Notes: generated by a model not told the origin, from the letters alone. DNA of 64,000 nucleotides from an uncultured Clostridia bacterium (GCA_947624375.1 CANQKD010000008.1:1-64000), one strand, 5' to 3'. Shown: positions 14,171-20,858, counted from the stretch's first letter. Translations and numbers: made by a program.

Positions 14171-15085
14171 ATGGCGCTGCCGGAGTTTAGCAAGCTTACG
14201 CAAAACACAACAGCCGTTCCGCAGTGGGCAAAGTACATGAAAAACGGCGAGTTTATAAGCTATTACACCACATACCATAGCAAGATATATTTTGATCTGT
14301 TTGATAAGTATGTATACCCCTGCGAGAAGTCCGGCGATATTACATATTACGTCTACGACCCCGTAAAGCACGGCGCGCCTGACGATAAAAAATACCCCGT
14401 GCTCATGTGGCTGCACGGCGCAAGCAACGCACTTGACGGCGTGAAATGCATCATGTGCTGCGGCGCTGAGCAGTATGCCTCGCCAAAGTATCAAAGCGAA
14501 ATGGGCGGCGCGTATATCATCGTTCCCCTCGCCAACGAAAAACGCCTTGAAAACGGCAATATCGACGGCACTTGGTCGGAAGTTTATTCCGCACCGATAA
14601 AAGGCATATACGATAAAGTCTGCAAAGAGCACGAGGGAAACATAGGCAAAAAGTTCGTCATGGGCGCATCTTCGGGCGGCTATTTTACATGGCAGCTGCT
14701 GGAGGACTTTGGCGGATATTTTGACGGCGCTATACCTATATCATCGGGGTATGTTCCCGATGACGAAGCTCTTGACAGGATTTCCGACAGCGGCGTAAAC
14801 TTGCTTATCGCCCACGGCAGACATGACGAAATGGCTGACTTTGACGAGTGTATCTCACCGCGTATAGATAAACTTATGGGCATGAAAAACTGCATCTGCT
14901 TCTTCCCCGAGTGGGTGTATAATGGCGACGGCGGCATATCTTCGGTGCACTTCGGCATTGAAATGGGTCAGCACTGTATGATAAACTGGGTGCAGTCAAA
15001 CCTGATGTTCGATAACGGCACACCTGCCGATGAACGTCTCCCAAATGGCATAACCGGCTGGATAAAAAGCGTGTGCGAAAAGTAA
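14171..15085 (+). CDS. Alpha/beta-hydrolase-fold esterase/peptidase
   Basis: GxSxG nucleophile elbow (GASSGG), plus downstream Asp and His candidates (IAHGRHDE). Confidence 0.6.
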   Translation: MALPEFSKLTQNTTAVPQWAKYMKNGEFISYYTTYHSKIYFDLFDKYVYPCEKSGDITYYVYDPVKHGAPDDKKYPVLMWLHGASNALDGVKCIMCCGAEQYASPKYQSEMGGAYIIVPLANEKRLENGNIDGTWSEVYSAPIKGIYDKVCKEHEGNIGKKFVMGASSGGYFTWQLLEDFGGYFDGAIPISSGYVPDDEALDRISDSGVNLLIAHGRHDEMADFDECISPRIDKLMGMKNCICFFPEWVYNGDGGISSVHFGIEMGQHCMINWVQSNLMFDNGTPADERLPNGITGWIKSVCEK

Positions 15086-15095
15086 TAAAAAACAA

Positions 15096-15136
15096 ATAAG
15101 TACGAAAAAAGCCGTGCATCAAAGCGATGTACGGCT
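15096..15136. terminator. Bidirectional intrinsic terminator between the convergent hydrolase and SASP genes
   Basis: A GC-rich hairpin (gccgtgcatc...gatgtacggc) is flanked by an A-run and a T-run. Confidence 0.6.
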
Positions 15137-15152
15137 TTTGCTTGCAGTAAAA

Positions 15153-15341
15153 TTACTGTCTGTTTCCGCTCTTGTAAGCGTCGATCATTTTCTTAACCAT
15201 CTGACCGCCTACGGAACCTGCCTCGCGAGAAGTCAGGTCGCCGTTGTAGCCCTGCTTGAGGTTTACGCCGACTTCGTTGGCAGCCTCCATCTTAAATCTT
15301 TCGAGGGTCTGTCTGCCCTGATCTGTAGTAATACCTTTCAT
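15153..15341 (-). CDS. Small acid-soluble spore protein, alpha/beta type
   Basis: 62 aa. Contains EVGVNL and TSREAGSVGGQMVKKMI, which are the two conserved SASP motifs. Confidence 0.85.
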   Translation of the reverse strand: MKGITTDQGRQTLERFKMEAANEVGVNLKQGYNGDLTSREAGSVGGQMVKKMIDAYKSGNRQ

Positions 15342-15737
15342 TACTTACACTCCTTAAATAGAATCTGTTCGTTAGGGAACATACTGTTATTTTGTAAAAT
15401 ATCCGCGAATTTATTAGTGGAAATGCCTGGGGAAAAGTCTGCCGCAGTCCGGCGAGGCATTTGACCGCAGGCACTGAAGCCTTAAAATACAAACGCGGAA
15501 ATTTTTTGCCGCGCGATATTTCGCACAGCGATACAGTTCATATTTACCCCTGATATATTTGCGGTTTTTGCCGCTGAAAGTATTTTAACCGAAGCTTTCG
15601 CTAATATGTAATTTTCGCGTTGACAAATAATTGAAGATTTTTTGTAAGCAACAAGCATAAAAAACAAACCGAAGGGATTTAACGTTCCTTCGGCTTTTTG
15701 TAAAATGCCGGATCGCTCCGATTCGGCGTAATAAAAG

Positions 15738-18700
15738 TTACTCATCATCATTTTCCGATGCGTTTTTATTACCGTCATCTGATTTTTCTGAGGCTGCAAT
15801 ATCTCCCGATGCTGTGTAGATGCTGTTAAGCAGTTCTAACACACGGATGAACAGGGGATCGTTCTTTATTTCCGGTTTTTCAATAATGGCAATTTCTTTT
15901 TCAAAGCAACGTTTTACAGCGGCAATATCACCTTGCTTTAAAAAGCTCACGATCAGACCTGTAAAGCATATACAAAAACTATTGCAGCAAAGATCAAGCG
16001 CCACCTTGTTTATATTAGAGTCCTCATGTTCTGCCAGTTTCTCCCTGATGGGAATTTCCTTTTCATATAATTCTACTGCGTAAGCGTAGTCTTCCTGCTT
16101 TTGGCAGATGTCGCCAAGATCTCTGTAGCAATCAGCAAGTTTTTTCAGGTTATCGCCGTGATCATCATTTTCTGCCTTTTTTTCTAAAATGGCAATTGCT
16201 TTTTCAAAACAGATCTTAGCCTCGCCGTAGTCTTTCGTTTCTTTGCAGATGCTGCCAAGCACGCTTAACACAGTGATGTACATTGGCTTGTTCTTTATTT
16301 CCGGTTTTTCAATAATGGCAATTTCTTTTTCAAAGCAACGTTTTACAGCGGCAATATCACCTTGCTTTAAAAAGCTCACGATCAGACCTGTAAAGCATAT
16401 ACAAAAACTATTGCAGCAAAGATCAAGCGCCACCTTGTTTATATTAGAGTCCTCATGTTCTGCCAGTTTCTCCCTGATGGGAATTTCCTTTTCATATAAT
16501 TCTACTGCGTAAGCGTAGTCTTCCTGCTTTTGGCAGATGTCGCCAAGATCTCTGTAGCAATCAGCAAGTTTTTTCAGGTTATCGCCGTGATCATCATTTT
16601 CTGCCTTTTTTTCTAAAATGGCAATTGCTTTTTCAAAACAGATCTTAGCCTCGCCGTAGTCTTTCGTTTCTTTGCAGATGCTGCCAAGCACGCTTAACAC
16701 AGTGATGTACATTGGCTTGTTCTTTATTGCCGGTTTTTCAATAATGGCAATTTCTTTTTCATAGCAATTTTTTGCAGCAGCAAGATCACCTTGCTTTACA
16801 AAGCGTATGAGCAGACTAGTAAAGCATAAACAAAAACTATTGCAGCAAAGATCAAGTGCCACCTTGTTTATATAAGGGCCCTCATGTTCTGCCAGTTTTT
16901 CTCTGATGGGAATTTCTTTTTTATATAATTCTACTGCGTAAGCGTAGTCTTCCTGCTTTTGGCAGATGTCGCCAAGATCTCTGTAACAATCAGCAAGTAC
17001 TTTCAGCATTGCATCAGGATCATCAGGTCCCGCTAGTTTTTCTAAAATGGCAATAGCTTTTTCATATCGGTCTTTAGCAGTTATGTAGTCTTCCTGCTTT
17101 TTGCAGATGTCGCCAAGATCGCTGTAACAAACAGCGATATTTTTCTGTGTCTCGTCAGAATCATCATGCTCAGCCAGCCTTTCTAAAATGGCAAGCGCTT
17201 TTTCATAACGTTCTTCAGCGGTGAAGTAGTCTTGTTGTTTTTTGCTGACGTCACCAAGATCGCTGTAACAAACGGCGATATCTCTTTGTATATCGTCAGG
17301 ATCATAATGCTTTGCCGGTTTCTCTAAATATTTAAGCGCTAGTTTATACGATTCTTCAGCGTAGTCGTATTCTTTGTATTTTTTGTAGTACATCTGGGCA
17401 TTACCAACAAGTCGGTAACAAAGAGAGACTGCTTTTTGCGCATATTCACGCTCGTCATCTTTTTTTGATAGTTTTTTTGGAGCTTTGTCAAACCAAATTT
17501 CCGCTGCCCAAATATAGCCTTTTCTCACGCAAATGATACCGATCTCGTAAGCAGTTTTAAAATCATCGTTCAGATGTGAAGTGTCTAAGTTTTCTGTTTT
17601 TGCTATGTCTTCTAAGGTGGATCCTTTTTCTCTTAAAATTGCTTTGCTCTGTAAAAATTCTTTGCCAAGAGATCCATAGGTCATATCCAGAGACTCGATC
17701 CATTCTTTTGCACCAGCAATATCGCCCTGCCTGTCACAGTCGTCGGCATGCCTGAAACAACGTGTAACAAACTTTTCAAAGTGTTTTTCCTCGATCAGCT
17801 TATCGGTTGCAACAGCCTTTTCAAAATAGACTTTTGCAGCGTCATTATCGCCCAGCTTGTGACAGAACACATAAAGCTTTACATAAGTTTCAGAAAGCGT
17901 GAAAAATGACATCTCGGAATTTTTTTCTTCTGCCTCTTTTTCTCTGACTGTGACTACTTTTTCATACCATACTCTGGCATTTGAAATATCTCCGTTCTTC
18001 TCATGAAAATCACCGATATCACTGTACAAATAATAAAACCGATCATTTGCCTTGTCAACATCTTCGGTCGCAGCCAGTTTTTCAGTAGCTTCGGCAGCTC
18101 TTTCATACCACATTATTGCCATGGGCAGATCTTCAAGATGTTTTCGCCAAAAATCGCCGGAAAAATTATAGATGCTATACAGTTCGCGGTATTCTTCAGC
18201 AGTGCCGATATGATCCGGCAGTTTTTCTTTGACCTTGAATGCTTTTTCTGACCACTCTATTGATTCCTGCGTTTTGTTAAGCTGTAAATAAGAAAAGCTT
18301 ATATCTAACAGCGTCTTGAAAAGATGATTTTCAAACCAATCATCAGAAAACCGCTTCATCAGTTCTTCTAAAACAGCAAGTTCTTTTTTGTATAGTTCCA
18401 GCGCATCCCACCAATTTGCATAAATTATTTCCCAATAATCCCATGTTTGTGTGGTATCTGATGCCCATTGACGGTAATCGAGCATCCATTGTCTTGCATC
18501 GCTTTCTGCCCCTGTTTTTTTGTACTGCTCTTCTCTGAGCTGCACAAGGCGTTTTTGCCATTTGATAGCATTCGGGAAATCACGCTCAACGCCCTCGCCT
18601 TCATGATATAAACTTGCCAGCTTTGAAATTGCTTCGGGCAGGTCTTGCTCTGCTGCGGCGGTTATCATCTTCACGGCACGTTCACGGTCTACCTCAACAT

Positions 18701-19643
18701 CTATTCCCGAAAGATATGCCAGCCCTATAAAAAACAGGTGCTGAGGGTCGTTGTTTTCTGTGCTTTCAAGCCCTAGCGCCTGTCTGACAGTCTCGGCGAT
18801 GCATTTCGGGTCACCTGCTGATATGGGCGAGGGTATATCTTTATACTTCTCCTGCAGAGCTTGTTTATCGGTTTCTACAAGTTCTACCGGCATAACGGGC
18901 TTTTGGCTTCTGGCAGCCTCTGGGTATTCCGTCGTCATCACATAGTTGTTGTCTTCCAGCAGATTCGGCGTTACCGCAAGAGCAAAAAGTTCGCTTTTTT
19001 TCATTGCTTCTTCTATTGCCTCGTTAAAGTTTTCGCCCGGCACAAGAAATTCATCATACCATATAGCGATATCGCGGCAAAAATCATTGCTGTGTATCAG
19101 CCGCATAAGCTTCTGCGCATATTCTCTGTCTTTTTTGCGGTAGCTGAGAAACACATATGCATCAAATGCAGCACGTATTTTTTCGATCATTTCATCGCCT
19201 ATAAGCACCGAATCAAGATATTGCTTCAGCTTGTATTCATAGCTTATCTGTGTGCGGTCATGAGAGTTTCGGTTCAGCATTTGCAGATCGCCGCATTTTT
19301 TGTTGAACGCCTCTTCAATATCGCTGTCTTCCTGTATTGGCAGCACGGGGATATGAAGTTTCTGTGCTTTTCTGAACACCTCAGAAAACGCAAAGGTATC
19401 CTGCTTGACAAAATTTGTGGTCACAACAAGCACTATCAGCTGCATGGATCTCAGGTCGCCTTTAAATGTTTTCATGTCCTCGGGGCGCTCGGGGTCGGGG
19501 TCATAAAACACGGCGCAGTTGCTGAATTTCAGCAGGTCGTCGGCTATTTCGTGCAAATACTTTTCAAATCCTGCGCTGTGACCGGTCACATACACTTTGG
19601 GTATGCCCTGCGCACTTATGCCTTTTCTGGTTATATACTGCAT
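15738..19643 (-). CDS. 1301-aa protein: an N-terminal TIR-like domain, a canonical TIR domain (AYVFLSYRKKD...IAIWYDEF), Sel1-like repeats, and then a long TPR array of more than 25 repeats that contains three in-frame 143-aa tandem units
   Basis: The TIR-domain call comes from motifs seen directly (VFLSYR, WYDE..L.PGE, a SELFALAVTPN βD-like strand). The Sel1 repeat is LAYLSGIDVEVDRERAVKMITAAAEQ. The gene is monocistronic and flanked by terminators. Confidence 0.8.
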   Translation of the reverse strand: MQYITRKGISAQGIPKVYVTGHSAGFEKYLHEIADDLLKFSNCAVFYDPDPERPEDMKTFKGDLRSMQLIVLVVTTNFVKQDTFAFSEVFRKAQKLHIPVLPIQEDSDIEEAFNKKCGDLQMLNRNSHDRTQISYEYKLKQYLDSVLIGDEMIEKIRAAFDAYVFLSYRKKDREYAQKLMRLIHSNDFCRDIAIWYDEFLVPGENFNEAIEEAMKKSELFALAVTPNLLEDNNYVMTTEYPEAARSQKPVMPVELVETDKQALQEKYKDIPSPISAGDPKCIAETVRQALGLESTENNDPQHLFFIGLAYLSGIDVEVDRERAVKMITAAAEQDLPEAISKLASLYHEGEGVERDFPNAIKWQKRLVQLREEQYKKTGAESDARQWMLDYRQWASDTTQTWDYWEIIYANWWDALELYKKELAVLEELMKRFSDDWFENHLFKTLLDISFSYLQLNKTQESIEWSEKAFKVKEKLPDHIGTAEEYRELYSIYNFSGDFWRKHLEDLPMAIMWYERAAEATEKLAATEDVDKANDRFYYLYSDIGDFHEKNGDISNARVWYEKVVTVREKEAEEKNSEMSFFTLSETYVKLYVFCHKLGDNDAAKVYFEKAVATDKLIEEKHFEKFVTRCFRHADDCDRQGDIAGAKEWIESLDMTYGSLGKEFLQSKAILREKGSTLEDIAKTENLDTSHLNDDFKTAYEIGIICVRKGYIWAAEIWFDKAPKKLSKKDDEREYAQKAVSLCYRLVGNAQMYYKKYKEYDYAEESYKLALKYLEKPAKHYDPDDIQRDIAVCYSDLGDVSKKQQDYFTAEERYEKALAILERLAEHDDSDETQKNIAVCYSDLGDICKKQEDYITAKDRYEKAIAILEKLAGPDDPDAMLKVLADCYRDLGDICQKQEDYAYAVELYKKEIPIREKLAEHEGPYINKVALDLCCNSFCLCFTSLLIRFVKQGDLAAAKNCYEKEIAIIEKPAIKNKPMYITVLSVLGSICKETKDYGEAKICFEKAIAILEKKAENDDHGDNLKKLADCYRDLGDICQKQEDYAYAVELYEKEIPIREKLAEHEDSNINKVALDLCCNSFCICFTGLIVSFLKQGDIAAVKRCFEKEIAIIEKPEIKNKPMYITVLSVLGSICKETKDYGEAKICFEKAIAILEKKAENDDHGDNLKKLADCYRDLGDICQKQEDYAYAVELYEKEIPIREKLAEHEDSNINKVALDLCCNSFCICFTGLIVSFLKQGDIAAVKRCFEKEIAIIEKPEIKNDPLFIRVLELLNSIYTASGDIAASEKSDDGNKNASENDDE
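15861..17147. repeat. Three tandem 429-bp (143-codon) repeats inside the TIR-TPR gene. Units 15861-16289 and 16290-16718 are essentially identical; unit 3 (16719-17147) is diverged
   Basis: Shown by direct comparison of the sequence. The antisense ORFs 15820-16083 and 16243-16512 are mirror artefacts of these repeats. Confidence 0.85.
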
Positions 19644-19853
19644 ATATGTCCCTCCGTAGATCGAAAGTCTGATATTGCGCCCATATGATGGCGGGCTTTA
19701 TTTTATTGTAACACGATTTTCACAAATTGTCAACCGCGGGCTGCGAAAAATAAGTTTTATAACATTATCTTGTATCACCCTGTCGTATTGTGACATATTA
19801 TGTATCGGGAAATAAATTCCCCACTTATTCCGATACAGAAAGGCAGCGGCATA

Positions 19854-20363
19854 ATGAACGAAAAAACTTCGGGCAAGATGTCCGTCAGGAAAAAGATCCT
19901 TATCGTTATTATCCTGCTGGTGCTCATGCTGATATGCTTTCTGCTTGGTATGTTTACGCAGTCGCTGAAAAAGCCTAGCGGCGGCGGTATGCGCTTTGAG
20001 GCAGGCGTGGGAATTTCCTCAAGCATCGAAACACCTGCACAGCAGCAGGGTATCGCGGTCAAGGGCATGGCGCAGATGTTCATTCCCGCAGGCGAGAAGA
20101 CTGTAGCGGCAAGCTTTGAAAACCCTAAGGAAAACACAGGTCTTTACTACCTCACCTTTGAGCTGAAAGCCGATATAGGCGGCAAAAGCGAGACCCTCTA
20201 CACCTCCGGTCTTGTAAAAGCAGGCGAGCAGGTCAGCAGCATTACCCTTTCGCAGCCGCTTGAAAAAGGCAAGTACAGCGCGGTGCTGCACATACAGCCC
20301 TACAGTATCTCGCTTGCCCCCACAAACAACGCGGATATCCCCATAACACTAATAGTTTCATAG
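19854..20363 (+). CDS. Membrane-anchored (N-terminal TM) beta-rich extracellular protein
   Basis: Start set at MNEKTSG, which has an RBS. A single TM segment (ILIVIILLVLMLICFLL) is followed by a ~130-aa soluble domain. Confidence 0.5.
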   Translation: MNEKTSGKMSVRKKILIVIILLVLMLICFLLGMFTQSLKKPSGGGMRFEAGVGISSSIETPAQQQGIAVKGMAQMFIPAGEKTVAASFENPKENTGLYYLTFELKADIGGKSETLYTSGLVKAGEQVSSITLSQPLEKGKYSAVLHIQPYSISLAPTNNADIPITLIVS

Positions 20364-20369
20364 AAACGG

Positions 20370-20858
20370 GTGATCAATATGATGAAAAAACTTCTGACGG
20401 CTGCCGCAGTGCTGGCTCTTTTGCCGTTCACCGCATCGGCAGAAACGATAGACCAGTCGGCGGCGGACAAAACCGGCACGATAAGCGTAGACCACTATGT
20501 CGATGTTTCATATACGGTCACTATCCCTGCCGGCGTTACTTTTACAGACAGCGAAAAGGTAGTTGAAAGACCGCTTCAGGCAAGCGGCGTTTTTCTGAAT
20601 GAGGGCGAAAAGTTAAGTGTTTATGTCAGCAGCCAAAACGGCTTTAAAATGGTAAACAACAGCGGATATATCGACTATTATATGAAAGTCAATGCCGGTG
20701 AGCCCATAAGCGGCGACAACGTAAAAGTAATGACCGTCACCGCAGGAGATAACTCCGGCTGGGCGCTGCTGGAATTCGGCACGGCGCTGTCAGACGAGCA
20801 TCAGGCGTATGCAGGAATATATTCCGATACGCTTACCTTTACGGTAGCAGTTGAATGA
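20370..20858 (+). CDS. Secreted beta-rich protein, possibly a fimbrial/spore-surface-like fold (DUF4402-like)
   Basis: Signal peptide MMKKLLTAAAVLALLPFTASA. The mature domain is ~135 aa and ends in TLTFTVAVE. It starts 6 nt after the preceding gene. Confidence 0.5.
   Translation: MINMMKKLLTAAAVLALLPFTASAETIDQSAADKTGTISVDHYVDVSYTVTIPAGVTFTDSEKVVERPLQASGVFLNEGEKLSVYVSSQNGFKMVNNSGYIDYYMKVNAGEPISGDNVKVMTVTAGDNSGWALLEFGTALSDEHQAYAGIYSDTLTFTVAVE

Follow-up and report, generated by a model that had tools for sequence, protein, structure and literature searches.

A stand-alone gut Clostridia protein with a tandem TIR head and a Sel1/TPR solenoid: a candidate single-chain sensor-effector

Analysis of a 64,000 nucleotide stretch of DNA from an uncultured Clostridia bacterium (GCA_947624375.1, CANQKD010000008.1:1-64000; hereafter the window) revealed a single unbroken open reading frame (ORF) of 1301 codons on the minus strand at 15738-19643, the product of which consists of a tandem TIR head, Sel1 repeats and a TPR-like solenoid. 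The ORF was identified from the ORF list, its translation and Pfam matches, and was counted as a real gene because an open frame so long could not arise by chance. The initial annotation had placed a product of 1301 amino acids (aa) here without stating the strand, and the motifs it quoted, AYVFLSYRKKD, IWYDEFLVPGEN and SELFALAVTPN, were all found in the translation. We consider it about evenly balanced that this protein is an autoinhibited TIR NADase, switched by a ligand on its solenoid and most likely serving in conflict or defence; it would then be a cytoplasmic, self-contained sensor-effector made from one gene. The invariant pocket, variable array, stand-alone gene and patchy, multi-copy spread described below fit such a solenoid-inhibited sensor-effector. 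The host of the window is an uncultured Oscillospiraceae-like bacterium, whose RF2 is only about 70% identical to that of any named relative.

Pfam analysis found a TIR_2 domain (PF13676) at aa 164-259, with a score of 46.2 bits against a cut-off of 28. The canonical TIR_2 domain was delimited to aa 160-290 (18774-19166, minus strand) by this match together with weak PADLOC TIR matches, residue conservation, AlphaFold2 (AF2) modelling and Foldseek. The N-domain preceding it (aa 1-156; 19176-19643, minus strand) matched no Pfam family and was reached by no TIR profile, and its own profile gave chance matches only among PDB sequences. A Foldseek search with a model of both domains (predicted template modelling score, pTM, 0.57) was dominated by tandem Rossmann-like proteins, e.g. 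EngA and periplasmic binding proteins, and the N-domain was therefore modelled alone. From a 27-sequence alignment, this model reached a pTM of 0.87 and a predicted local distance difference test score (pLDDT) of 90.5, with a beta-alpha-beta TIR topology. As the initial annotation had proposed, two consecutive TIR-type domains, the second canonical, are supported by the TIR_2 score and by the AF2 models, which gave TIR beta-alpha topology in both; TIR structures were the top Foldseek matches for the head domains, and the modelled fold is the flavodoxin-like five-strand beta-alpha fold of the TIR superfamily, matching solved TIR structures. The N-domain profile also matched a second stretch in nearly every family member, and this second stretch is the TIR_2 domain; the N-domain is a divergent duplicate of it. 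No NTPase was found anywhere in the 1301 aa when NB-ARC, AAA and P-loop families were sought with Pfam and NCBIfam, and no ATPase, kinase or other enzyme module exceeded the Pfam cut-off, in agreement with what had been read from the sequence earlier. NCBIfam profiles added nothing specific for this protein.

Comparison of 184 distinct family sequences revealed 16 invariant residues in the TIR_2 domain: F165, S167, Y168, R169, K170, R173, W195, Y196, D197, E198, F206, T225, P226, N233, Y234 and E239. Residues K171, P202 and G203 were conserved at 99%. Glu239 (codon at 18927-18929, minus strand), the Glu in helix alpha-C, was invariant in 184 of 184 sequences, and it is probably the catalytic residue. 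In an hhalign comparison with the SARM1 TIR domain, FLSYRK of the window protein fell on FISYRR and YVMTTE239 on WVHKE642, and the Glu was spaced 13 residues from the beta-D proline in both proteins. A phmmer alignment with IL-1RAcPb likewise placed E239 on the conserved Glu. On the other side, HMMER and hhalign alignments with AbTir, which anchor on the shared NY motif, put AbTir E208 on V235 (Val/Ile235), one helical turn before E239. This register speaks against the NADase reading, as it makes a non-canonical or inactive site possible. The search for a catalytic Glu proposed in the initial annotation thus yielded an invariant candidate, with two alignments agreeing on its register and AbTir departing from it.

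The AbTir register, by placing a hydrophobic V/I235 at the catalytic position, also favours the very improbable alternative that the protein is a non-enzymatic scaffold, in which both TIR domains are interaction modules as in animal TLR adaptors, the solenoid assembles a complex and Glu239 is structural. The charged and aromatic residues of the SYRKK, WYDE, PGE and NY motifs and E239 are, however, absolutely invariant, which is typical of an active site and not of an interface, and the SARM1 and IL-1RAcPb alignments put Glu239 at the canonical Glu position. Among the bacterial TIR proteins characterised so far, moreover, enzymes predominate (PMC11350192).

If the protein is an NADase, the effector would be the second TIR domain (aa 160-290), a predicted NAD(P)+ glycohydrolase or cyclase with a pocket formed by the invariant SYRKK loop, the WYDE-x-L-x-PGE BB-loop and Glu239. 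TIR enzymes need a TIR:TIR partner interface, as established from the structures of SARM1, TIR-STING, TIR-SAVED, SPARTA and plant TNL proteins. By analogy, the window protein would also need a partner TIR surface, and this is most likely provided by its first TIR domain (aa 1-156), itself non-catalytic, as the second half of the TIR:TIR interface that opens the active site. In the N-domain column aligned with E239, column 89, 64% of family members have Glu and 12% Asp; the first TIR is taken to be non-catalytic here because the window protein has Val89 where most relatives have Glu.

Downstream of the head, a Sel1 match was found at aa 336-362 (Pfam, 38 bits), within Sel1-like repeats that span aa ~296-372 (18528-18758, minus strand) and are strongly conserved in the family. 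Column conservation over the 184 sequences is 0.85 at aa 301-320 and drops to 0.27-0.6 past aa 360. Pfam families TPR_12, TPR_10, TPR_2, TPR_1 and TPR_8 were matched over about aa 760-1290. A repeat hidden Markov model (HMM) self-trained on the protein found 16-17 clear TPR-like hairpins at aa 486-1257 (15873-18188, minus strand), many with a period of 47 residues, and 3-4 weak ones; the total of about 17-20 falls short of the more than 25 TPR repeats previously claimed. TRF identified a 429-bp unit, equal to 143 aa and three hairpins, that is repeated in tandem at 15818-17064, in 2.9 copies with 93% matches. The pN/pS ratio (non-synonymous to synonymous polymorphism) between the repeat units was 0.6-0.96, which with few sites is uninformative. 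The Sel1/TPR solenoid (aa ~296-1290) would act as both sensor and autoinhibitor, keeping the head inactive until a ligand binds, whereupon the TIR pair would be released or oligomerised.

Each 143-aa repeat unit also carries a cysteine-rich hydrophobic stretch (ALDLCCNSFCICFTGLIVSF), present in three copies (window 15818-17064, aa ~860-1275). This stretch may form a buried TPR helix or serve as a metal or redox site.

Comparison with a sibling contig, L080, which is 98% identical to the window, revealed that the gene varies between closely related strains. L080 carries a 1205-aa allele (P0001) that is 91% identical to the window protein, and the 5′ flank of the gene is collinear with L080 up to the end of that locus at window 29636. 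The two alleles differ by a 288-bp in-frame indel within the 429-bp tandem repeat (blastn, MAFFT), the length of which is strain-dependent, and by a divergence hot spot in the N-domain, where identity over window 19000-19499 is 92.8% as compared with about 99% in the flanks. The hot spot holds 28 non-synonymous and 11 synonymous changes, and the TIR_2 domain shows no non-synonymous change between the two. The N-domain has raised synonymous divergence as well, a sign of recombination, and the L080 N-domain resembles those of two other family members, P0003 and P0004. These alignments suggest that the hot spot arose by recombination between alleles or paralogues.

Database searches found the family to be large. 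An exact-sequence look-up of the window protein returned no record, and a search with the full protein (E<=1e-5) found more than 2500 relatives. Each of the 120 relatives listed carries TIR_2 and TPR, most of them also Sel1, and the few whose source was named are proteins of Oscillospiraceae or Ruminococcaceae metagenome-assembled genomes (MAGs). The N-domain profile matched 2336 clusters at 50% identity, 1359 of them at E<=1e-30, and the domain lies nearly always at the N-terminus of proteins of 600-1300 aa. A scan of species-genome contigs with the single protein as query confirmed no relative; repeated with the family alignment and two conserved peptides on 185,579 genomes, one per species, the scan worked and yielded 416 confirmed loci. 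The loci listed are all from gut MAGs, of Lachnospiraceae, Oscillospiraceae, Acutalibacteraceae and related groups, and the host animals are rabbit, goat, deer, sheep, chicken, mouse and human. The top 79 loci come from 65 assemblies, of which at least 11 occurred more than once, one of them four times, and four loci (L006, L016, L036 and L040) hold tandem copies, up to three in number. The gene is therefore patchily distributed and often multi-copy, with several paralogues per MAG, and is not the universally conserved core gene that would have spoken for a housekeeping role. One family member, P0016 (1903 aa), has two complete heads, seen as four stretches matching the N-domain profile, and is therefore regarded as a fusion or read-through of two tandem genes.

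Were the protein an immune sensor-effector, it would most likely bind a protein or peptide of a phage or other mobile element as its ligand, and the infected cell would lose its NAD+ and stop growing, i.e. undergo abortive infection. With several paralogues in one genome, each with its own array, the cell would then have a repertoire of specificities. A broader and unlikely proposition is that gut Clostridia hold an expanded, NTPase-free repertoire of tandem-TIR receptors, each with a near-invariant two-TIR head and its own array, diversified by gain and loss of tandem repeats. Such receptors would have a built-in asymmetric TIR:TIR pair and would be activated without a STAND, SAM, STING or SAVED assembly module, forming a bacterial counterpart of the plant TNL repertoire with a different activation logic. 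In other systems the asymmetric TIR:TIR pair is not known to form except through ligand-driven oligomerisation. If the sensor-effector model is true, the family, with about 2000 clusters at 50% identity, would be among the largest groups of single-chain TIR sensors; to our knowledge, hardly any immune system of the uncultured gut Oscillospiraceae and Lachnospiraceae that harbour it has been tested. The tandem head would also offer a simple system for studying how a partner TIR opens the active site within one polypeptide, and the fast-changing array a natural series for mapping the recognised phage or mobile-element proteins.

Inspection of the flanks suggests that the gene is expressed from signals of its own. 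A promoter-like site close to the sigma-A consensus, TTGACA-17-TACAAT with a TG extension, was found by consensus scan and reading of the sequence at 19705-19733 (minus strand), 62 nucleotides (nt) upstream of the ATG; it is a consensus match only. It is followed by a putative ribosome-binding site GGAGG at 19651-19655 (minus strand), 7 nt before the ATG. On the 3′ side, a predicted intrinsic terminator at 15659-15693 (minus strand) consists of a hairpin with a 10-bp stem at 15693-15669, 45 nt past the stop codon, and then TTTGTTTTTT; the scan reported the hairpin on the plus strand, and the T tract became visible on reading the minus strand. With these signals the TIR-TPR gene looks monocistronic, as the initial annotation had it. 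Of the terminators it placed on both sides, the one at the 3′ end was verified, but a divergent promoter region lies on the 5′ side. The G+C content of the gene is 0.40 as against about 0.47; this fits the Lys/Glu/Asp/Tyr/Ile-rich composition of the repeats and was not used as a sign of transfer.

To describe the genomic context of the family, ORFs were taken from 80 loci, and 137 immediate (+-1) neighbours were compared with 137 control genes located 5-9 positions away. No neighbour was conserved over the 80 loci, and the largest neighbour cluster was found in five. The neighbours, most of them with ordinary functions, matched 148 Pfam families, with at most three matches to any one family. 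Their orientation was random and the median intergenic gap was about 100 nt. A search for RRNPP-like propeptides found no small ORF (18-75 aa) within 450 nt common to more than three syntenic loci. The most recurrent neighbour encodes a 345-aa sigma-70-family protein, present in five loci and usually adjacent (L035:666-1700 and four others); its recurrence may be due to a functional link or to shared gene order in related genomes.

Several of these results, with others, weigh against a defence role. PADLOC matches (E<=1e-10) were similarly few among neighbours and controls, so that no defence-island signal was obtained from this comparison, of the PADLOC-style kind that had been proposed, and the families around the gene are ordinary ones such as BioY, sigma factors, ABC transporters and peptidyl-tRNA hydrolase. 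In the window protein itself PADLOC gave repeat matches and weak TIR matches, to ThsB (18.2 bits, E 2.6e-4) and TIR-SAVED (19 bits), and no strong TIR match. A tblastn search with the head against 50,697 phage records and 72,556 plasmids gave no match, the head occurred in only 2 of 2.9 million viral contigs, and all family members come from uncultured MAGs. One of the viral-contig members (834 aa; L081:8072-17039, IMG/VR) lies directly after genes for a Tn916-type Xis and a tyrosine integrase, and this adjacency was counted in favour of a role in conflict or defence. In that contig, DUF5688, DnaD-like, IstB-like and ParA genes follow the TIR-TPR gene, and tail and endolysin genes are located upstream; the gene may belong to the prophage, to a neighbouring element or to host DNA. 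The proposal of a single-protein immune system built of TIR and a sensor array is upheld by the architecture, the lack of a partner and the patchiness, but not by defence-island or accessory character.

Because there is no defence-island association and the family is rare on mobile elements, the main rival is a physiological regulator, an unlikely one in our estimate. Here a TIR NADase, or a switch binding NAD(P) or a nucleotide, would tune NAD pools, dormancy, stress or development in spore-forming gut Clostridia, with the TPR/Sel1 solenoid binding endogenous proteins or peptides. The ordinary chromosomal neighbours with no defence enrichment over controls, the rarity on phages and plasmids, the sigma-70-family gene adjoining in five loci, and the location of the window gene in a strain-conserved flank beside a small acid-soluble spore protein (SASP) gene all favour it. 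It is opposed by the patchy distribution, by the variation in copy number and array length, by the array indel between near-identical strains, by the promoter, which is sigma-A-like and not of a sporulation sigma type, and by the lack of any conserved metabolic or developmental partner gene among the loci. Should the role not be immune, the family would provide a rare example of a TIR NADase employed in bacterial physiology. A sporulation scaffold, a candidate prompted by the adjacent SASP gene, was dropped, since the SASP gene is not conserved beside the family and the promoter is sigma-A-like.

Comparison with known systems found that the theme is known, and that the idea had been wrongly taken as uncharacterised. 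TIR-II of E. coli, a single TIR and TPR protein, protects E. coli from phages and needs its TIR active site (Nat Commun 2024, PMC11350192). Among the new TIR systems it was reported to be the most widespread; about 30% of its relatives carry an ATPase, and it is also found in Caudoviricetes (PMC11350192). Compared by description, the window protein resembles TIR-II in joining TIR and TPR in one polypeptide with no obligatory partner, but its family lacks an ATPase, carries Sel1 repeats behind a tandem TIR head, has an array that is much longer, and is found in gut Clostridia and nearly absent from phage collections. As in SARM1, an alpha-solenoid and a TIR domain lie in one chain, the solenoid of SARM1 regulating its NADase; unlike SARM1, the window protein has the reverse domain order, two TIR domains, TPR/Sel1 in place of ARM repeats and no SAM octamerisation domain. 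TIR-carrying Avs/STAND proteins also combine an N-terminal TIR effector with a C-terminal TPR, the sensor that binds phage proteins being an Avs/STAND feature, but they have a STAND P-loop NTPase between effector and sensor that the window protein lacks. The closest solved structure by sequence is AbTir (PDB 7UWG/8G83), with an identical WYDEF start of the BB-loop and an NY motif before helix alpha-C. AbTir consists of a coiled coil and TIR and has no repeat array, unlike the window protein, and with its E208 aligned on Val235 either the catalytic register differs or the alignment is shifted. The protein is not of the RRNPP type either, having no HTH or phosphatase domain and no conserved propeptide-sized ORF nearby. 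What sets this case apart is its tandem TIR head, its Sel1 segment, an array that is both very long and unstable, and the family's expansion in uncultured gut Clostridia.

The window protein can also be read as a one-chain version of BcTir/BcTpr and of Thoeris type VII/VIII, which have a degenerate TIR, an NAD-cleaving TIR-superfamily domain and a tuning TPR. In Thoeris type VII/VIII a TIR protein is accompanied by ThsI, in which TPR is fused to a CMP-hydrolase-like domain. In BcTpr, the TPR serves to tune an NADase (bioRxiv 10.1101/2023.05.26.542521), and the TPR domains of ThsI and BcTpr are proposed receptors of cyclic ADP-ribose (cADPR). This proposal, the weak ThsB and TIR-SAVED matches and the presence of CARF-nuclease (Card1-like) genes beside 3 of the 80 loci lend some weight to a Thoeris-like signal generator, which we hold to be quite unlikely: on a cue sensed through the solenoid, the head would make a cADPR-type or related nucleotide that activates an unlinked effector or feeds back on its own TPR, as proposed for BcTpr/ThsI, and would not kill through bulk NAD+ depletion. 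Set against it are the operon organisation of Thoeris, a ThsB match of only 18 bits and the lack of any effector gene conserved beside the family in the 80 loci, and the protein does not correspond to Thoeris in its form of ThsB plus effector.

In the window, the gene at 15153-15341 (minus strand), on the 3′ side of the TIR-TPR gene, encodes a 62-aa alpha/beta SASP, and homology to sibling contigs on this side ends at window 15187-15194, within the 3′ end of the SASP gene. Past the break, L080 (14168-23618) carries genes for an N6 methyltransferase, two DpnII proteins, a D12 methyltransferase, two SLFN-like helicases and an uncharacterised 784-aa protein. A second contig, L083 (13505-15205), approaches from the other side and carries a 566-aa large serine recombinase past the break. 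Since the sibling contigs differ past this point, the relatives are taken to hold a mobile element in the SASP gene, which serves as its attachment site, and the window to represent the empty site. The TIR-TPR gene lies outside the element. The restriction-modification and SLFN-helicase genes of L080 had been considered as defence-island context; the L083 comparison shows them to be cargo of the serine-recombinase element, and this argument was therefore abandoned. Likewise, the gene does not sit in an accessory-looking stretch, as had been supposed, but in a flank conserved between strains.

The other neighbours named in the initial annotation are present: DUF389, a radical SAM gene and two small exported or membrane-anchored proteins lie close by. 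The two small genes are divergent from the TIR-TPR gene (window 19800-20858, plus strand) and both are kept in L080; one encodes a 187-aa protein with an N-terminal membrane anchor and the other a 162-aa protein with a signal peptide, neither with a Pfam match. A plus-strand ORF of 116 aa at 15114-15464 is almost certainly spurious, as it matches no family and overlaps the SASP gene on the opposite strand. Further along, a 304-aa protein encoded at window 14171-15085 (plus strand), with no Pfam match, is kept in L083 and carries a GASSGG motif resembling the nucleophile elbow of alpha/beta hydrolases.

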